Of a stretch of 51,821 nt of DNA, positions 4,904 through 44,000 are shown piece by piece. The stretch's first letter is position 1; the number at the start of each line of letters is the position of its first letter. This stretch comes from Shigella phage pSf-1, in sequence record KC710998, one strand, 5' to 3'. The position numbers and the translations under genes are program-made. The notes beneath the pieces are model-generated. The model had not been told where the DNA came from. It saw only the letters and a list, made by a program, of their open reading frames with translations, and made no database searches.

Positions 4904-5309
4904 TAAAGGCGATTATCTGGAGTTTTACGAAAGAGATCCGACGGATACGCTAAAAGAGGAATCACACCAGATTGGGGCGTTTCAATGGTTAACTTATGCT
5001 CATCCTGAATTTCTTGCCTGGCATACGAAAAATGAGGGAGAAAAGGGTATCGCTACCGCAATGATGGATCAGCAAGCTGGACTCGTTAAGGGCGTAAGTG
5101 ATTTTATCATCCTGATTGGATTAAAAGGCCGTTACCCATTCGCGGCTATTGAGATGAAACGCGTCAATAAGTCTGGCAAGGGCAAGGCTTCACCAGTCAG
5201 CAAGGAGCAAAAAGCCTTCTTGCGCCGTGTGCGTGAGCTTGGCGGATTCGCTGCCGTAACATACGGATATAAGCAATTCATGATCGCGGTAGAATACATG
5301 ATGAAATAG
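4890..5309 (+). CDS. VRR-NUC domain nuclease (PD-(D/E)xK)
   Basis: KGVSDFIIL...IEMKR motif pattern typical of VRR-NUC; ATG 4890 with AAGGA RBS. Confidence 0.6.
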   Translation: MAITDKGDYLEFYERDPTDTLKEESHQIGAFQWLTYAHPEFLAWHTKNEGEKGIATAMMDQQAGLVKGVSDFIILIGLKGRYPFAAIEMKRVNKSGKGKASPVSKEQKAFLRRVRELGGFAAVTYGYKQFMIAVEYMMK

Positions 5310-8389: not shown

Positions 8390-8877
8390 TGAGTATAAAA
8401 CAAAGAGTGACCGCTGCGGCTTTTGGCGTTGCTCTTGCCCTTACTTCTCCGCTACTGGAGGAAATAGAAGGAGTAAAATATAAGCCGTACAAAGATATTG
8501 CTGGGATATGGACGGTTTGCGCCGGAATAACTGGACCTGACGTAATACAAGGCAAAACGTACACACAAAGAGAGTGTGATGCACTACTGGCAAAGCATAT
8601 CAAGATCGCAAAGGATGAAGTTGATAAGAGTGTAAAGGTTGACATTCCTGATACAATGCGCGCAGCAATGTATTCATTCACATACAATGCTGGAACTGGA
8701 GCTTTTAGAAATTCAACCATGCTTAAGCTGATTAATAGAGGTCGTTACATGGAAGCGTGTAATCAGTTATGGCGATGGACCAAGTACACCAATCCAAAAA
8801 CTGGAAAGAAAGAAACGTCTAAAGGACTGCGCAACCGCCGCGCGGTGGAATTTAAATATTGCATTAAGGATCTGTAA
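8389..8877 (+). CDS. SAR endolysin (T4-lysozyme-like muramidase)
   Basis: N-terminal weakly hydrophobic Ala/Gly-rich signal-anchor-release segment; catalytic E-x8-D-x5-T triad ([16 protein letters not shown]). Confidence 0.7.
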
Positions 8878-14923: not shown

Positions 14924-14954
14924 TTTTAAATCCTCGTTCGTTGTCGATGCGCTT

Positions 14955-14998
14955 AATATACCAATCAGAGGCGCATCGGTTTTAACAAAAAGTGCTAT
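14955..14998 (-). promoter_or_regulatory. conserved promoter cassette (minus strand)
   Basis: motif + spacer, TATATT enclosed by 8-bp inverted repeat CGATGCGC/GCGCATCG. Confidence 0.55.
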
Positions 14999-15285
14999 TC
15001 AACAACAGATCCAGTTAAAGAGATAAGTGCTCTTGTGATCTTGTGTCTGCGATACTGACGCGCAACAACCGGAAGATTTTCACCGCTTTGATGACCGAAG
15101 CAGATCGGCAACTCACCCTCAAGAGAGCGGAAGCCGCCAAATTCAAGATCCCGCACTGGATTTGAGCGCCACGCTTCAATAAATCCGCGTTCGTCACGCG
15201 TGATATAGCGGTATATGTTAGGGAGGGGCAATTGTATCCCCTCAAAATCCACGGTATCGGTATAGCTGTAAAACTTAGAACTCAT
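14995..15285 (-). CDS. hypothetical protein
   Basis: start at MSSKFYSY overlapping stop of upstream small gene; track ORF 14995..15402. Confidence 0.4.
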   Translation of the reverse strand: MSSKFYSYTDTVDFEGIQLPLPNIYRYITRDERGFIEAWRSNPVRDLEFGGFRSLEGELPICFGHQSGENLPVVARQYRRHKITRALISLTGSVVE

Positions 15286-17745: not shown

Positions 17746-17776
17746 ACCTCATCGAAACGAGATTGAGGAAAACAAA

Positions 17777-25053: not shown

Positions 25054-25574
25054 ATGGCTAAAAACGTTGAGCCAGCAGTAAAGGCTTGCAATTTTAAAAA
25101 ACTATATAATAAGCAATATGGCGATATAGCAAAAATGACAAAGGCGCACAAGTACACGCCGGAACAGGTATTTGATCTGGCTGTTCGTTACTTTACGTGG
25201 GCTGAGGAAAACCATATACAGGCTGCGGAAACGGCATCCTTTCAGGGTGACGTATACGAAAGCAAGATTCACAAGCCGCGCGTGTTCACCTTAAACGGAT
25301 TCCGATTATTCGCTGGCCTTTCTGCCTCCGTACTTGAAAAATGGCGACGCGAGCAGGATTTAGCGATGTTATGGACTTTATCGACGGCGTTGTTTACGAG
25401 CAAAAATTCCAGCTTGCCGCAAACAATATTGTTAACGCCGGATTCATTGGTAAGGAGATCGGCATTGAAAAGCCAGCCACCGTTACCATTGAGAATAACA
25501 CAAGCGCCAGCGTTGACGCTGTAACGGCGGAGGAAGTCAAAGAGGCGGTAATTGACATTCTGGAGAAGATATAA
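25054..25574 (+). CDS. terminase small subunit (apparent frameshift near 25357)
   Basis: N-terminal part ...KPRVFTLNGFRLFAGLSASVLEKWRREQ in one frame, C-terminal part GFSDVMDFIDGVVYEQKFQLAANNIVNAGFIGKEIGIEKP in another (track ORFs 24883..25524 and 25341..25574); AAGGAGGG RBS. Confidence 0.55.
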
Positions 25575-27142
25575 TGCTGATTTGGGAAGACTTAACAGCG
25601 GCGCAAAAGCGCGCCGTTAAGGAAATGAGCGAATATTCATTCGAAAAGATGATCCGCATTTGGTTTCAACTTCTCCAGGGGCAAAGGTTCTTGGGAAACT
25701 GGCATTTCAGTTACCTATGCAGCGAAGTTGAAAAAATCATCAAAGGCGAGTCACAGAATGTAATTTTCAACATAACGCCAGGCAGTGGTAAAACAGAGAT
25801 ATTCTCGATCCACATGTCACCTTATGCGTCATTGAAAAGTAAGAAGGTGCGAAATCTTAATCTTTCGTTTAGTGATGGCCTTGTCCAGCAGAATAGCAAC
25901 CGCATCAAAGAGATTATTGGTTCTCCAGAATGGCAGGAGCTATGGCCTGGAAAGCTGGCAAAGGCGAGCGCAAAGGATTTGATTGTAACAGATGGCGGCA
26001 AGGTTAAATTACAAGTCAACTCGCGTTCTATTGGTGGTCAGGTTACTGGTCTGCGTGGCGGATACATGGACGATGGATTTACTGGTATGCTGGTTCTTGA
26101 TGATCCAGACAAACCGGATGACATGCTTTCTAAGGTGAAGCGCGAAGCCGGACACATGCGCCTAAAGAACACGGTGCGATCGCGTCGAATGAAAGACACT
26201 ACGCCAATTGTGATGGTTCAGCAACGTCTACACGTCAATGATTCAACGTGGTTCATGACAAACGGCGGTATGGGCGGCATCCAGTTTAAGGTGGTAAGTA
26301 TTCCGGCGCTCGTTACTAAGGAATACCGCGAAACGCTTCCTGATTGGTTAAAGCCTGAGTTTGATCGCGATGTTTTGTCCAGTAAGCCAGTGATGATTGA
26401 TGGTGTTGCTCATTATTCGTTCTGGCCTGCTAAGGAAAGCGCGGAGGAATTACTTGCACTTCGAAATGCTGATCCGTACACGTTCGCCAGTCAGTATCAG
26501 CAACAGCCTGTTGCGCTTGGTGGTAACGTGTTTAAAACAGAGTGGTTCCAGTATTACGGCAGCAGCGAGAAATGCACGCTACCAAAACCGGATCGCTTTG
26601 AATATACATTTATCACGGTTGATACCGCGCAGAAAACAGGTGAGCTTAACGACTACTCCGTGATCTGTTATTGGGGGATGTATAAAGATCGTGTCTACTT
26701 CATTGATGGCGTTCGCGGAAAATGGGAAGCACCGGACCTTGAGACGAATTTTGTTGCATTCGTTAATCAGTGCTGGAAGCGCAATAAAGAATGCGGAACG
26801 TTGCGAAGGATTCATGTTGAAGATAAATCATCTGGCACTGGCTTGATTCAGAGTGCAGCGAAAAAAATCATGATCAAGATCAATCCCGTTCAGCGCGATA
26901 AAGACAAGGTTACGCGAGCAATGGACGCAGCGCCAGTAATGCGCGCCGGACGCGTAGCACTTCCAGAATCCCATCCTATGCTGGCTGAGATACTAGCTGA
27001 AGTTGCGGCGTTTACATTCGATGATAGCCATCCTCATGATGATATTGTTGATAACATCATTGATGCGGTTAACATTGAAATGAACATGGCAGATGATCCG
27101 GTTGGAAGAATGAAAAAATTGGCAGGTTTGCGGAACAAATAG
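25574..27142 (+). CDS. terminase large subunit
   Basis: Walker A ITPGSGKTE, 522 aa, follows TerS. Confidence 0.7.
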   Translation: MLIWEDLTAAQKRAVKEMSEYSFEKMIRIWFQLLQGQRFLGNWHFSYLCSEVEKIIKGESQNVIFNITPGSGKTEIFSIHMSPYASLKSKKVRNLNLSFSDGLVQQNSNRIKEIIGSPEWQELWPGKLAKASAKDLIVTDGGKVKLQVNSRSIGGQVTGLRGGYMDDGFTGMLVLDDPDKPDDMLSKVKREAGHMRLKNTVRSRRMKDTTPIVMVQQRLHVNDSTWFMTNGGMGGIQFKVVSIPALVTKEYRETLPDWLKPEFDRDVLSSKPVMIDGVAHYSFWPAKESAEELLALRNADPYTFASQYQQQPVALGGNVFKTEWFQYYGSSEKCTLPKPDRFEYTFITVDTAQKTGELNDYSVICYWGMYKDRVYFIDGVRGKWEAPDLETNFVAFVNQCWKRNKECGTLRRIHVEDKSSGTGLIQSAAKKIMIKINPVQRDKDKVTRAMDAAPVMRAGRVALPESHPMLAEILAEVAAFTFDDSHPHDDIVDNIIDAVNIEMNMADDPVGRMKKLAGLRNK

Positions 27143-27172
27143 CACGAATCGACAAACCAATATATAATCAAA

Positions 27173-27195
27173 GGCTGGAAAATCCAGCCTTTTTT
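27173..27195 (+). terminator. hairpin + T-run between terminase and portal genes
   Basis: GGCTGGA-aaa-TCCAGCC + T6; preceded by ATAGCACGAAT...TATAAT partial cassette. Confidence 0.4.
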
Positions 27196-27210
27196 ATTGG
27201 AGGAAAGATA

Positions 27211-28490
27211 ATGAGTAAATCACGAATCGTTAAGGCTGATGGCTATAACGAGATCTTTAAAGGCGAGAATTGCAAATCGCGAGTAGAGCAACCATTCTAC
27301 ATGCAATCAATGCCATACAAGACACTTGCTGACTTTTACGAAAAAGACGGCCTGGCAAAAAGGGTTATTGACGTAGTACCAGAGGAAATGGTTTCCCCTG
27401 GCTTCACGGTTGACGGCGTGGCAGACGAGGCAGCATTCCGTTCTTTGTGGGATGAGAAGCGATTGAATGCAAAAATTATTGATGCGCTTTGCTGGTCGCG
27501 TTTGTTTGGTGGATCTGCAATCATTGCTCTTGTTCAGGATGGGCGAGCGCTCAAATCACCTGTAAAGCCTGGTGCCATGTTGGAGGATGTGCGAGTTTAC
27601 GATCGCTATCAGATTCGCGTTGAAGCGCGCGAAACTAATCCACGCAAGGTTCGCTATGGTGAGCCAGTGCTTTACACTGTAACGCCAGGCGGAGACTTGC
27701 CGGAATACCAGGTACACTACACGCGAGTTTGCATTATCGACGGTGAGCGGATACCTAACGCAAAGCGACGCAGCAATGATGGCTGGGGTGAGTCAGTTCT
27801 TAACAAGCGACTTGTTGAGGCTATTGTTGATTATAACTATTGTGAAACATTGGCAACGCAATTATTGCGGCGGAAGCAACAGGCGGTATGGAAGGCTAAA
27901 GGACTCGCTGACTTGTGCGATGATGAAGAAGGTGTTAGCGCGGCACGTCTGAGGCTTGCGCAGGTTGACGATGAGGCGGCGTAGGCAGGGCCATTGGTAT
28001 TGATGCTGAGGATGAGGAATATGATGTTCTTAACTCTGACATTAGCGGCGTTGATTCTTTTCTGGAAAAGAAAATGGATCGCATCGTTTCCCTTTCAGGT
28101 ATTCATGAAATCATCCTGAAAAATAAAAACGTTGGCGGAGTTAGCGCAAGCCAAAACACGGCGCTTGAAACATTCTATAAGCTGATTGAACGAAAACGCG
28201 TTGAGGATTACAAGCCTATTCTTGAATTTCTATTGCCGTTCATCATTAGTGAGCAGGAGTGGAGTATTGAGTTTTCACCTTTGAGCGTACCTAGCGATAA
28301 AGATCAGGCTGAAATTCTGAATAAGAATATCGACTCAATCAGCAAGGCTATTGATGGTCAGTTCCTTGATGTTGAAGAAGCGCGCGACACGTTGCGAGCA
28401 ATCGCCCCAAGCGTTAAACTAAAGGACACTAATAAAATCAAGCTGCCGGAGCCAACTGAGCCGGAGCCAGGCACGCAGGGGAATGAGTAA
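27211..28490 (+). CDS. portal protein (apparent frameshift near 27970-27985)
   Basis: two adjacent track ORFs (27211..27984, 28074..28490); second frame is open back to about 27975, so one indel joins them; position between TerL and head morphogenesis gene. Confidence 0.5.
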
Positions 28491-29254
28491 TGAAAGTGAA
28501 AGGCGTTGTTAAACAATGGCGTTTTCCTGAAGCAAGCGAGCGGCAATTTAGCCGCTCAATTCAGGAGGCAATTAGAGATCTGGTAGTTCTCATGCGTAAT
28601 AGGACAAAAGCGATGAAGTTTGACGCAACCGATAATGAGATCAACAGCGCAGAAGATGAAATTAACAGCCTGGCAACTGACCTTATAGCTGGCATTGTTT
28701 CCACTCTTCCTGCAATCGCGTTGACCATTTATAAATTCAATGCGAAGCAGTTTATCAATGTTGCCAAGTCAACTGGCGGAAAGGATAATACGGCGGTAAT
28801 TGTTTTGATCGCGGTTGGCGCTAACGCTAACGAGGATTGGTATCAGACGCTCTACGGTCAATGGCACGGGCTTACAGAATCATCGCTAAGGAAGTTATTC
28901 ACAAACATTGTTTCTGATTGGTCAACAAACATTCGTAATGCAAACTTTCGCGGAAGCAATGATAAACAGGTTAATGATCTTGCAGAAAAGAGATTTGCTG
29001 TTTATAGCTCTTGGGGTAAAACGAGATCAGAAAACATTATCGGCGCGTGGAATAGTCGCCTGATGCGCCAGCGCCTTTATGATGCTAAGGTAACTCATTA
29101 TTTCTGGCATGGAATGTTAGATGACAGAGAGCGCTTGCAGCATGTGTTATGGGAAGGTAAAAGAATAGCGCTTAATGCAATTCATGATTTCCCTGGTGAG
29201 CCGTGGGGTTGCCGTTGCTGGGCGATTCCAGATTGGAATAATAAAGGAGAGTAA
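28490..29254 (+). CDS. head morphogenesis protein (Mu F / SPP1 gp7-like)
   Basis: C-terminal motif FPGEPWGCRCWAIP. Confidence 0.55.
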   Translation: MKVKGVVKQWRFPEASERQFSRSIQEAIRDLVVLMRNRTKAMKFDATDNEINSAEDEINSLATDLIAGIVSTLPAIALTIYKFNAKQFINVAKSTGGKDNTAVIVLIAVGANANEDWYQTLYGQWHGLTESSLRKLFTNIVSDWSTNIRNANFRGSNDKQVNDLAEKRFAVYSSWGKTRSENIIGAWNSRLMRQRLYDAKVTHYFWHGMLDDRERLQHVLWEGKRIALNAIHDFPGEPWGCRCWAIPDWNNKGE

Positions 29255-29257
29255 TTA

Positions 29258-30370
29258 ATGAAGGCAAAACAAAGATTTGATAGCGTCCAGGTTAAGGCGC
29301 ATTTTGATGATAATGGCTTTTTAGTGGATCGCCCAATTGTGGCGCGAATTGGTTTGCAGGAGTACCGCACACCGTATGGAATCAGGCGAGAGTTCCGACC
29401 AGCGTCAGAAGTGTTTAAGGCTGATTCGCTTGCTACGTTCGCAGGCAAGCCGATCACTATCGGTCACGTCACAGTGACGCCAGATAATGCGGATCAGGTT
29501 GTTGTTGGTTCATGCGCTGGCGCTGGTGTTCCAAATGGGATTGGCGTTGAAGTTCCGTTAAGCATTTATTCAAAGCGAGCAATTGAGAGCGCAAAAAAGA
29601 AAGACACGGCGGAAATTTCAGTTGGTTACACATCAATTGATATTGATAAACCAGGTTGGGGCAATAATAAAACTGGCGATTACTTGTTTGAGGAAGACAT
29701 TAAGGAAGACTGGAAGCCTGATTCTCCTGATTGGGTTAAATTTGACGCCATTCAGACGAATATCCGTGTTAATCACATTGCGCTCGTCTTTCGTGGTCGT
29801 GCTGGCATTGCCAAATTAAATCTTGATAGTGAACAGGATTTTCCGTATAGTGACGAGGTTCTAAATGACAAAGGAGATGAGGAAATGACAGTAAAAATTA
29901 AACTTGATGGCGCGGTAGAATTTGATGTTCCAAAGGCCGTTGCTGATCATATTGAGGCGTTAAAGGCAGATGCAAAAGCTGCAACCGAAAAAGCTGATGG
30001 CCTTGAGGCCGAGCGCGACGCCCTGAAAACTAAAGTCGATGGCATTCCGGCGCAGATTGCAGAAGCTGTTAAGAAGGCAAAGACTGACGCAGAAGAACAC
30101 GCCAAGCTGGTTGCAGATGCAACTGAAATTGGCATCAAGTGTGACGGCCTGGACGCTAAAGCGATCAAAGTTGCTTACGTCAAAGAAGTCACTGGCGCTG
30201 ATATTTCAGAAAAAGCCGATGCATATATTGAAACAGCTTTTGACCTTGCGAAGCAGTCTGATAAAATGGCGGCGCAGCGTAAATCTGTTAAGGGCGATTC
30301 TTTCGAGTCTGGCAAGAATGAAAAAACCGACTCCCTTGATCCGACTGCGCGTTTGAAAAAACTTAAATAA
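29258..30370 (+). CDS. scaffolding protein / prohead protease-like
   Basis: C-terminal Ala/Lys/Glu/Asp-rich predicted coiled coil; position before capsid genes. Confidence 0.45.
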   Translation: MKAKQRFDSVQVKAHFDDNGFLVDRPIVARIGLQEYRTPYGIRREFRPASEVFKADSLATFAGKPITIGHVTVTPDNADQVVVGSCAGAGVPNGIGVEVPLSIYSKRAIESAKKKDTAEISVGYTSIDIDKPGWGNNKTGDYLFEEDIKEDWKPDSPDWVKFDAIQTNIRVNHIALVFRGRAGIAKLNLDSEQDFPYSDEVLNDKGDEEMTVKIKLDGAVEFDVPKAVADHIEALKADAKAATEKADGLEAERDALKTKVDGIPAQIAEAVKKAKTDAEEHAKLVADATEIGIKCDGLDAKAIKVAYVKEVTGADISEKADAYIETAFDLAKQSDKMAAQRKSVKGDSFESGKNEKTDSLDPTARLKKLK

Positions 30371-30902: not shown

Positions 30903-30924
30903 GGCGCTCACTGAGCGCCTTTTT
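30903..30924 (+). terminator. rho-independent terminator
   Basis: palindrome GGCGCTCA-c-TGAGCGCC + T5. Confidence 0.6.
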
Positions 30925-31374: not shown

Positions 31375-31392
31375 CACAAAATTATGTTGCAC

Positions 31393-31411
31393 GTTTAACA
31401 AAAAATGCTAT
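31393..31411 (-). promoter_or_regulatory. orphan copy of conserved motif in reverse orientation upstream of capsid gene
   Basis: GTTTAACAAAAAATGCTAT on + strand; no minus-strand gene downstream. Confidence 0.4.
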
Positions 31412-31457
31412 CATTGGGGCGTTACATACTAACAGCCTTTATATATGGAGGAAGAAA

Positions 31458-38882: not shown

Positions 38883-38907
38883 AAGCCGCCTTTGTGCGGC
38901 TTTTTTA
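38883..38907 (+). terminator. rho-independent terminator
   Basis: AAGCCGC-ctttgt-GCGGCTT + T6. Confidence 0.55.
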
Positions 38908-38940
38908 TTGATGATACAATGCACGAAAGGAGGTGCAATT

Positions 38941-41019: not shown

Positions 41020-41046
41020 GTCGCGCGTTGCGCGGCTTTTTTTTTG
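41020..41046 (+). terminator. rho-independent terminator
   Basis: GTCGCGC-gtt-GCGCGGC + T9. Confidence 0.6.
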
Positions 41047-41090
41047 CCCGTATAATTCAACAAATCAAATAGCACAAAAGGTGAAAAAGC

Positions 41091-44000
41091 ATGGCTGAAA
41101 ATATGATAACGGGCAGTAAGGGTGGATCATCAAAACCTTATGTGCCAAAAGAGATGGAAGATAACCTGATCTCAATCAACAAAATCAAAATCCTTCTTGC
41201 CGTTTCCGATGGTGAGTGCGATCCAGATTTCACGCTTCGCGATCTGTATCTCGATGATGTTCCGGTAATTGCAGACGACGGAACTGTTAACTACCAGGGT
41301 GTGAAAGCTGAATTTCGACCTGGAACGCAGACGCAAGATTACATCCAGGGGTTTACTGACACATCAAGCGAAGTGACGCTGGCGCGTGACATTACTACAT
41401 CAAATCCTTATGTAATTTCTGTAACCAACAAAACATTATCGGCTATCAGAATCAAAATGCTAATGCCAACAGGCATCAAGCAAGAGGATAACGGCGATCT
41501 TGTCGGCGTTAAGGTTACTTATGCTGTTGATATGGCTGTTGACGGAGACTCTTACAAAGAAGTATTGCTAGACACCATCGAAGGTAAAACGCGTTCCGGT
41601 TACGACAGAAGCCGAAGGATTGACCTTCCGGCATTTAATGATCGCGTATTGCTTAGGGTTAGAAGGGTTACGGCAGACAGCGCATCATCTCGCGTTACTG
41701 ATCTGATTAAGCTACAAAGTTACGCTGAGGTTATTGATGCAAAATTCCGTTATCCTCTGACTGGTCTTGTATACGTTGAATTTGACAGTGAGTTGTTCCC
41801 TAACCAGATCCCTAACATTTCAATCAAGAAGAAATGGAAGCTGATTAACGTTCCGAGTAACTACGATCCTGTTTTGAGAGAGTATCACGGTTCATGGGAT
41901 GGTACTTTCAAGAAAGCGTGGTCGAACAATCCGGCGTGGGTTCTTTATGACATTATCACAAACCAGCGATACGGATTAGATCAGCGAGAACTTGGTGTGC
42001 AGGTTGACAAATGGAGTCTTTACGAAGCGGCACAATACTGCGATCAGAAAGTGCCGGATGGAAAAGGCGGTACAGAGCCGCGTTATCTATGCGACGTTGT
42101 GATTCAAAGCCAGATTGAGGCTTATCAGCTTATTCGTGATATTTGCTCAATCTTCCGAGGCATGAGCTTTTGGAATGGCGAGAGCTTGTCAATCGTCATT
42201 GATAAGCCGCGCGATCCGTCGTACATCTTCACCAATGACAACGTTGTTGATGGTGATTTTCAGTACACAACAGCAAGCGAAAAGAGCATGTACACGCAGT
42301 GCAACGTGACGTTTGACGACGAACAAAACATGTATCAACAGGACGTAGAGGGCGTATTCGACACAGAGGCCGCATTGCGCTTTGGATACAATCCGACAAG
42401 CATAACAGCGATCGGATGTACACGCAGGAGTGAGGCTAATCGGCGCGGTCGATGGATACTAAAAACCAACTTGCGCAGCACTACGGTAAACTTTGCTACT
42501 GGACTGGAAGGCATGATCCCATCAATAGGTGATGTGATTGCTATTGCTGACAACTTTCACAGCAGCAACCTGAAGTTAAACCTGTCAGGGCGCGTGATGG
42601 AAGTTTCCGGCTTGCAGGTATTCGTTCCGTTTAAGATTGATGCTAGACCAGGTGATTTCATTATCATCAACAAGCCGGACGGTAAGCCAGTTAAGCGCAC
42701 AATCTCAAAGGTAAGCGGTGACGGAAAAACCATTGAGCTAAACATTGGGTTTGGGTTTGAAGTTAAACCTGACACGGTTTTTGCAATCGACCGCACTGAT
42801 ATTGCGTTGCAGCAATACGTTGTAACGAGTATCGGCAAAGGTGATGATGATGATGAATTTACATACTCCATCACGGCTGTTGAATATGACCCGAACAAAT
42901 ACGACGAGATTGATTACGGAGTAAACATTGACGACAGGCCAACTTCAATTGTCCAGCCTGACACAATGGCAGCACCGGAAAACGTGCAAATATCCTCATA
43001 CTCGCGAATTGTCCAGGGGGCAAGCGTTGAAACAATGGTTGTGTCGTGGGATAAAGTACCTTACGCATCGCTGTATGAAATGCAATGGCGAAAAGGTGAT
43101 GGCAACTGGCTGAATACACCACAGACCGCAAACAAAGAAATTGAGGTTGAAGGTATTTATTCAGGAAACTACCAGGTAAGGGTTAGATCTGTTTCTGCTT
43201 CCGGTTCCACATCGCCGTGGTCCAGAATTGTGACAGCTTCACTGACTGGTAAGGTAGGAGAGCCAGGTGCGCCAGTTAACTTAACTGCATCCGACAATGA
43301 GGTGTTTGGCATTCGTGTAAAATGGGGCATGCCTGAAGGGAGTGGAGACACTGCATACATTGAGCTTCATCAGTCGCCAGATGGAACAGCGGAAAACTCA
43401 AGCCTATTAACGCTGATCCCATACCCACAATATGAATACTGGCACGGGACGCTTCCGGCTGGTCATGTTGTCTGGTATAGGATTCGAAGCGTTGACAGAA
43501 TCGGCAACGTTTCCAGCTGGACTGATTTTGTTAGAGGCATGGCTTCAGATGATGTTGAGGCTGTTTTAGGCGATATTCTTGATAAGATTTTTGATACCGA
43601 AGCAGGAAAGGATCTGAAAGAGAATGCCATTGATAGCGCAAACAAAATCAAGGATCAGGCACAAAGCATCATTCAAAACGCATTGGCGAATGATACGGAC
43701 GTTAGGATTATGAGGAAGGAGAACGGAAAACGCAAAGCCGAGTTTAGACAATCAATCCAATTGATCGCAAGTGAAACTGAAGCGCGCGTTACCGCAATGA
43801 CGCAACTTAAGGCTGAATTTGACGATGAAATAACTAGCGAAGTAACGAGACTCGATCAGGCAATTGCAACAGAATCGGAAACGCGAGCAACAGCCATTGA
43901 GGAATTGAAATCACAGATTGGTGATGATATTCAGGGGCAATTAACGCGGGTTGAGGAAGCGATTGCAAACGAAACAGAGGCGCGCGTTTCGGCTGATACA

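Follow-up and report, generated by a model that had tools for sequence, protein, structure and literature searches.

A conserved intrinsic terminator with an abutting -10-like hexamer between the terminase and portal genes of Shigella phage pSf-1

The 68-nt gap between the genes for the large terminase (terL) and the portal protein was analysed in a 51,821-nt stretch of DNA from Shigella phage pSf-1 (sequence record KC710998), which is referred to throughout as the window. By sequence the window is that of a Hanrivervirus-like, T1-like phage of the Drexlerviridae; region 25500-29500 shares 97-98% identity with the Hanrivervirus coliphages vojen, KarlJaspers and G29-2 (Drexlerviridae, Tempevirinae), and the 121 bases around the junction have matches of at least 90% identity in 63 public phage records. 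A preliminary description of this DNA, made from the letters alone, had named the flanking genes as terminase and portal, in agreement with the Pfam matches to Terminase_6C upstream and Phage_portal_3 downstream. It had also listed a TATAAT at about 27163 and a hairpin GGCTGGA-aaa-TCCAGCC with a T-run, followed by the portal ribosome-binding site (RBS), each of which is present in the sequence. The features of the locus are as follows.

25574-27142, plus strand: terL, from the open reading frame (ORF) list, with a Pfam Terminase_6C match (E 1.3e-11) and the same annotation in 97%-identical phages.
27137-27158, plus strand: decayed copy of a 21-nt repeat, aaATAGCACgaaTCGaCAAAC against the consensus aaATAGCACnnnTTGnTAAAA, from a repeat finder, an 11-mer count and comparison with relatives.
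27140-27142, plus strand: terL stop codon TAG, lying within the repeat motif.
27163-27168, plus strand: TATAAT, a sigma-70 -10 hexamer with 6/6 consensus matches, conserved in relatives.
27170-27192, plus strand: terminator hairpin AAAGGCTGGA-aaa-TCCAGCCTTT, from folding, a terminator scan, covariation and the annotations of phages G29-2 and TLS.
27173-27179 and 27183-27189, plus strand: arms GGCTGGA and TCCAGCC of the hairpin core, around the loop aaa, the stem being lengthened to 27170-27192 by A-U pairs.
27174-27177, plus strand: predicted range for the start of transcription, 6-9 nt downstream of the -10, which falls within the hairpin's 5' arm.
27190-27198, plus strand: T-run TTTTTTATT (27190-27195 in the narrower delimitation), from the sequence and the terminator scan.
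27199-27204, plus strand: portal RBS GGAGGA, from the sequence.
27211-27213, plus strand: portal start codon ATG, from the sequence and the ORF list.
27211-28490, plus strand: portal gene (Phage_portal_3), split into ORFs 27211-27984 and 28074-28490.

The hairpin folds with a free energy of -14.2 kcal/mol, against -4.4 +/- 2.6 kcal/mol for shuffled sequences (z -3.8, with 0/200 shuffles as stable), the whole intergenic region gives a z of -4.75, and a terminator scan of the window also picked up the hairpin at 27170-27192. Its 7-bp core contains five G-C pairs, is extended to 10 pairs and closes a 3-nt loop, and the U-tract lies directly 3' of the stem. When the junction was compared in 49 IMG/VR relatives (TerL identity 46-100%) and six GenBank genomes from other genera, the hairpin was found to be kept with varying stems, namely GGCTGGA/TCCAGCC, GGGCTGTCA/TGACGGCCC (T1-like), GGGCCA/TGGCCC, GGCTAGG/CCTAGCC, AGCCCC/GGGGCT and GTGGGCC/GGCCCAC. 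RNAalifold found no pairs on a plain MAFFT alignment, because stems of unlike sequence are misaligned there, and a structure-anchored alignment of 18 distinct junction types was used instead. In this alignment, which was made from each sequence's own fold and is thus biased towards structure, 98% of cells are paired, both-sided changes occur in 8/11 pairs and the covariation score is matched by no shuffle. The T-run is kept in all lineages but Webervirus and L036; the latter lacks the upstream hexamer as well, and carries CATTAT just 3' of the hairpin, in the conventional order.

This terminator has been recorded before. The G29-2 record (MK373798) annotates the same hairpin as an ARNOLD terminator, and the available text of the TLS paper (PMC11447400) places terminator T30 (ggctggaatattccggcc plus a T-run, -11.8 kcal/mol) at the same junction, just before the portal gene Gp31; the T1 record has no terminator annotated between terL and portal. 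The late region of the window, like that of T1, is punctuated throughout by terminators, and since these are widespread and the one at issue is already annotated in G29-2 and TLS, a terL-portal terminator is expected in this family, contrary to the preliminary description, in which its presence was considered surprising. Judged by sequence, the hairpin and T-run are a conserved, family-wide intrinsic terminator that has already been predicted in public data. A search of Rfam with 26900-27400 at permissive thresholds gave only sub-threshold matches to small RNAs, the best of which scored 24 bits (sroD; cut-off 50 bits), and these are driven by the terminator shape. A bidirectional terminator, with TATAAT as the minus-strand U-tract, was rejected, the minus-strand tail GATTATATAT being poor and no convincing minus-strand gene being found nearby. 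The unit of T-run, ATT and RBS in front of the portal gene recurs at 30917 and 32466 (repeat finder families D11 and D12).

A single TATAAT is in itself meaningless, and the weight attached to the hexamer at 27163-27168 comes from its conservation in relatives. A hexamer was counted as abutting the stem if it matched the consensus at 5/6 or more positions, with A2 and T6 present, and ended 0-6 nt before the stem core, and 77 late-region loci, grouped into distinct terminator-bearing junction types, provided a cross-junction control. An abutting hexamer is present in 23/23 terminator-bearing types at the portal junction and in 10/10 types at the major capsid junction, as against 33/187 at seven other late junctions pooled (0-36% at each) and none in control windows 20-32 nt upstream; because the types share descent, these counts are descriptive and are not probabilities. 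Over the 18 aligned types the hexamer reads TATAAT, TACAAT, TATCAT, TAAAAT, CATAAT or TATGAT, with A2, A5 and T6 invariant, while the five bases 5' of it are nearly free (0.04-0.72 bits). The tightest gaps keep it, with almost nothing else, between stop codon and stem, as in TGA-cg-TATAAT-GGGCC and TAA-ta-CATAAT-GTGGG. In Webervirus (L054, L057 and L098-L136; Klebsiella phages) a near-consensus promoter, TTGAAA-17-CATAAT, lies inside the end of terL and is followed immediately by the hairpin GTGGGCC-N4-GGCCCAC, with no T-run; as read from these genomes, hexamer and hairpin remain side by side even in phages whose hairpin is no canonical terminator. Two further candidates were rejected. One was a second -10 in the hairpin loop at canonical spacing (+38), seen as GACAAT or GATAAT in some lineages, with A2 and T6 lost in GTAAAT and CCTGAC. 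The other was a sigma-dependent pause at the -10-like element that boosts termination; by the established spacing, such a pause would miss the U-tract, falling about 10 nt on, at the top of the 5' arm.

The position of the hexamer has a consequence for any RNA that it might specify. In every portal junction type it ends 0-4 nt before the stem core, and the usual spacing between a -10 element and the start is 6-9 nt, so that the expected start falls within the 5' arm, for the window at 27174-27177. RNA begun there would lack the complete stem. For starts at nt 6, 7, 8 and 9 the residual hairpin has a calculated stability of -8.2, -4.4, -2.2 and -1.5 kcal/mol, respectively, compared with -14.4 kcal/mol for the full stem, and with a start at nt 7 the remaining hairpin is no stronger than -4.5 kcal/mol in 17/18 types, the full stems ranging from -10 to -16 kcal/mol. 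On this modelling, locally started RNA would largely escape the terminator.

Taken as a whole, the junction marks the border between two late transcription units, and as such it is of an ordinary kind and in large part published already. The element fits an intrinsic terminator, a sigma-70 -10 element, the Drexlerviridae direct repeat and a T1 transcripton boundary; it is not a canonical cassette of the kind found elsewhere in the window (wrong spacing, decayed 3' half), nor is it a two-hexamer consensus promoter (weak -35). What is new here, as far as the accessible portions of the published sources extend, since these list the terminator only, is the conserved -10-like hexamer pressed against the stem, with a start predicted inside the stem. 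On balance, and with no great assurance, the boundary probably operates by stopping the terS-terL RNA at the terminator and restarting portal and head transcription from the embedded -10, the new RNA escaping termination. The hairpin and T-run would end transcripts through terS and terL and probably protect their 3' end; TATAAT would serve host sigma-70 as the -10 of a promoter whose -35 is weak and from which transcription of the portal and head genes restarts; and local RNA, started inside the 5' arm and thus without a complete stem, would mostly pass a terminator that stops RNA arriving from upstream. The parts of the 68-nt gap overlap, which would save space. The portal is a structural protein of 12 copies. 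A terminator alone would make it scarcer than TerL, which is the wrong direction for such a protein, and a restart promoter would resolve this difficulty. The earlier suggestion of an attenuator that sets the TerL-to-portal stoichiometry is therefore retained in part: the conserved intrinsic terminator is there, but by itself it would yield less portal than TerL, and the hexamer points to a restart promoter.

Several observations weigh against a terminator combined with an embedded restart promoter. The hexamer 17 nt upstream of the -10, TAGCAC (27140-27145), matches TTGACA at 2/6 positions, the best -35 over spacings of 16-18 nt reaches 3/6 only, no extended -10 TG precedes the TATAAT of the window, and a scan for two-hexamer consensus promoters called none at the junction. 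Under the strict rules given in the available text of PMC11447400, no more than three sigma-70 promoters were accepted in the whole TLS genome by its authors. The predicted escape depends on the start, since a transcript beginning with G27174 would retain a 6-bp stem (-8.2 kcal/mol) beside the U-run, and this stem might itself terminate or serve as a 5' stem-loop, and the best hexamer of Rtp, TATGAT, is 5 nt away from the stem, most of which would remain in the transcript. In Webervirus the T-run is missing although hexamer and hairpin are both kept, so that not every hairpin at this site is a terminator. Common descent links the junction types, whose counts do not represent independent events; in the literature searched, no RNA 5'- or 3'-end data or transcriptome was found for any T1-like phage.

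The alternative that survives best, and which is nevertheless considered unlikely, is that the element is a partial intrinsic terminator and nothing more, lessening read-through from terL to portal or stabilising the 3' end of the terL mRNA, with TATAAT kept for some other reason. The strong terminator features, the weak -35 and the absence of a promoter call in the scan are in keeping with it, as are the few TLS promoters obtained under strict in-silico criteria, as given in the accessible part of PMC11447400, and AT-rich hexamers do precede 0-36% of terminator-bearing types at each of the seven other late junctions. It does not account for a hexamer found in 23/23 types, in which the sigma-70-required A2 and T6 are invariant while the neighbouring bases drift, for its retention in the smallest gaps or for the near-consensus -35 at 17 nt in Webervirus, and it would leave the portal scarcer than the terminase, presumably the wrong stoichiometry.

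The preliminary description had also raised the possibility of a 5' stabilising stem-loop. A real promoter would then be present, and the hairpin would stand at the 5' end of the portal mRNA, shielding it from 5'-end-dependent decay, in the manner of the 5'-terminal stem-loops that stabilise Escherichia coli mRNAs such as ompA. This is improbable. A start at G27174 would place the 6-bp stem of -8.2 kcal/mol at the extreme 5' end, and the TLS-like phage PHB07 and Rtp are similar; however, were the hairpin a stabiliser, some lineages at least would be expected to show a wider spacing, and in none are hexamer and stem separated by 6 nt or more. No spacer at all stands between the two in L027, L029/50EP and Webervirus, leaving 0-1 nt of the 5' arm transcribable, and the hexamer is always too near the stem (0-4 nt) for the whole of it to be transcribed, so that the suggestion is not favoured.

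Processing of the late transcript into terminase and head mRNAs at an RNase E-type site, formed by UAUAAU beside the stem-loop, with the hairpin protecting one of the resulting ends, is given very little credence. A single-stranded AU-rich segment next to a stable stem does resemble known sites, and a hairpin kept in Webervirus without a T-run would suit such a role, but RNase E tolerates loose AU-rich sequence, whereas the element here is a specific hexamer varying only where sigma-70 tolerates variation, accompanied in most lineages by a full T-run that processing would not need. That the inverted repeat acts as DNA, either as the operator of a dimeric protein or by forming a cruciform, is the least credible of the alternatives: the perfect 7-bp repeat does overlap the predicted start site, but the stems are wholly different between lineages while pairing is kept, which argues for RNA structure and not for a protein recognition sequence, and a T-run in that position is characteristic of intrinsic terminators.

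Comparison with known systems places the junction, read as a terminator with an embedded restart promoter, close to the organisation described for T1. According to Roberts et al. (2004), as summarised in the available text of PMC11447400, T1 is built of 'transcriptons', and the late region here is likewise cut into modules by Rho-independent terminators and host-type promoters; a conserved -10 against the stem, or a start inside it, is not mentioned in the accessible parts of the T1, TLS and G29-2 accounts. A bioRxiv preprint of 2026 (10.64898/2026.08.19.745784), in the portion available, reports that initiation and termination signals of neighbouring bacterial units are co-placed, coupled and widespread; that work concerns bacteria, whereas the portal junction belongs to a phage late operon. 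Leader attenuators of the trp and pyrBI type similarly have a terminator hairpin just before the coding region. Unlike these, the portal junction has no leader peptide and its start is predicted inside the stem rather than upstream; one dominant fold, with no competing helix, was obtained for 27143-27210 by single-sequence folding.

Upstream of the hexamer lies the partial motif ATAGCACGAATCGACAAACC (27139-27158), which is related to the 21-nt direct repeat of the Drexlerviridae, aaATAGCACnnnTTGnTAAAA. In TLS, according to the available text of PMC11447400, this repeat occurs in 18 intergenic copies (DR1-DR18) about 76 nt before start codons; it falls into A, T and G subgroups, has no known function and is shared by T1, Rtp and Rogue1. 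By our own reading its sequence forms a near-palindrome, TAGCA-N5-TG(C/T)TA. The copy in the window is intergenic and runs along the direction of transcription; its first base, 27137, is 74 nt upstream of the portal ATG (27211). It resembles the TLS repeat in its 5' core ATAGCAC (27139-27145) and GAA spacer, and differs from it in the 3' blocks, TTG and TAAAA, which read TCG and CAAAC in the window and are both intact in sister lineages, and in the -10, which follows after 4 nt and not after 17-18. The left half-site TAGCA is thus intact, while the right half-site TGCTA reads CGACA, the closest relatives having either CGACA or CGATA at this position. Four occurrences of the 11-mer ATAGCACGAAT were counted in the window, where 0.07 would be expected, and the remaining three are full cassettes; the repeat finder groups 27134-27156 with full cassette copies at 83% identity. 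A perfect G-subgroup repeat, ATAGCACGAATTGCTAAAAG, occupies the same site in L007-L026, L028, L044 and L049 (TerL identity 76-96%), with a variant in L029; no repeat is present at the junction in T1-like phages, in PHB07, in Webervirus or in several other lineages, and TLS itself has none there. Since it is intact in sister lineages, absent elsewhere and half-lost in the window, the repeat is a lineage-specific accessory of the junction that is eroding here. The preliminary description was thus right to consider a decayed cassette, whereas its placing of the motif directly after the terL stop needs amending: the motif is present, but overlaps the stop codon. A 9-nt direct repeat, CACGAATCG (27143-27151 and 27221-27229, the latter in portal codons 4-6), was dismissed as being at chance level, about 20 such pairs being expected in 52 kb by our own estimate, and it is absent from distant lineages, for example L008-L016.

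The window has about 18 copies of the canonical cassette, on both strands, in which ATAGCACTTTTTGTTAAAAC is followed after 17-18 nt by a -10-like hexamer, and then by a CATCGA(A/C)AACGA box, an RBS and a start codon; read from the sequence, the centre of the repeat lies near -42 from the predicted start. At 27139 there are 4 nt between motif and TATAAT and no untranslated-region box, and a hairpin with T-run is found instead, so that the location of the hairpin downstream of the -10, unlike in the other cassettes, is confirmed by the comparison. Hairpins also occur within the canonical cassettes. In 5/18 of them, at 5306, 6326, 12930 (minus strand), 17701 and 21896, a strong hairpin (-11 to -14 kcal/mol) fills the 18-nt gap between repeat and -10, and in several others, at 2293 (minus strand), 12255 (minus strand), 19381 and 20598, an inverted repeat brackets the -10, which lies in the loop; the hairpin of the 2293 cassette is followed by a T-run. 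Judging by these sequences, this genome seems to interleave hairpins with promoter elements quite generally. In most cassettes the conserved CATCGA(A/C)AACGA box stands between -10 and RBS, about 8 nt from the former (for example at 17747-17775, and at 14935-14960 on the minus strand), and no mention of it was found in the accessible text of the TLS paper (PMC11447400). In the 17701 cassette, CCTCA flanking the box can pair with the RBS TGAGG.

A second junction at which a -10 is followed by a hairpin lies at 31387-31440, before the major capsid gene (ATG 31458), and comprises TTGCAC, a 16-nt spacer with an inverted copy of the 21-nt repeat, TATCAT (31409-31414) and a weakened hairpin. T1 shows the same layout, with a promoter (15062-15089) and then a terminator (15095-15121) annotated, as does TLS, with DR7 plus T35. 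Portal and capsid are the two late junctions with this reversed order. In the sister lineages with an intact repeat at the portal junction, the repeat lies in the spacer of the putative promoter, centred near -28, and a regulator bound to it could gate the restart; in the lineage of the window the right half-site has been lost. A more elaborate proposal, which is possible but doubtful, is that the terminator is selective for the origin of the polymerase, stopping those from upstream and passing those that start locally, that a phage helix-turn-helix regulator bound to the repeat gates the restart where the repeat is intact, and that the same device recurs before the major capsid gene.

On the minus strand of the window, between the probable genes for primase and helicase, a 157-aa ORF (2296-2769) bordered by two repeat cassettes has sub-threshold matches to helix-turn-helix domains of the Cro/YdaS type (P22_Cro, E 1.4e-5). 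Its probable counterpart, by position only, is Rtp rtp52, which is similar to T1 gp23 and annotated as a putative transcriptional regulator. On these sequence features, its product is a candidate binder of the TAGCA-N5-TGCTA repeat.

Other late junctions have the conventional order, terminator then promoter, as at 38885-38925, before the minor tail gene at 38908, and at 41020-41090, before the 1150-aa tail gene at 41091. These resemble the portal junction in that a module boundary combines a terminator with a conserved -10-only promoter no more than about 15 nt away, but here the -10 follows the T-run, by 6-14 nt in 28/28 and 23/23 types, respectively, so that a transcript started there never contains the hairpin. 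Given this conservation, the pairing of a terminator with a -10-only promoter is a family rule at module boundaries, in agreement with the transcriptons reported for T1. A repeat-like sequence, AAATAGCACAAAAGG, lies at 41067-41087, between TATAAT (41051-41056) and the start codon at 41091, and corresponds to TLS DR8.

The terL-portal gap is, in addition, a hotspot for insertions. A gene for an HNH_3 homing endonuclease follows terL in L007 (4070-4576), L017 and L029, starting 1-2 nt past the terL stop or overlapping it in L007 and L017, and about 60 nt past it in L029; in all three the inserted gene ends in TAG or TAGC within the repeat, and the module of terminator and -10 is left beside the portal gene. 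In Rtp a full canonical cassette after the terL stop drives an extra gene, rtp22 (Rtp 8500-8856). The portal gene of the window is split into ORFs of 257 and 138 aa by the loss of one G in a G-run at 27970-27980, which reads GAGGCGG, as against GAGGGCGG in 9/9 close relatives in which the site was found, all of them with an unbroken portal gene of 1281 nt. Judged from this comparison, the missing G is probably a sequencing or assembly error, or else the mark of a defective genome.

For the Drexlerviridae, which are common in collections of coliphages and Klebsiella phages and in which transcription is almost unmapped, the junction offers a concrete transcription-unit boundary with definite predictions, namely a start at 27174-27177 and stops at 27192-27198. 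A terminator with an embedded restart promoter would explain unequal expression from adjacent genes, terminase being needed in small amounts and portal and head proteins in quantity. If locally started RNA does escape, the junction would constitute a compact terminator-plus-promoter part of about 50 nt, and if the terminator is indeed origin-selective, a switch of that size would uncouple terminase from head-gene expression. Finally, the 21-nt repeat occurs at several positions relative to -10 elements, which bears on whether it serves an activator, a repressor or both.

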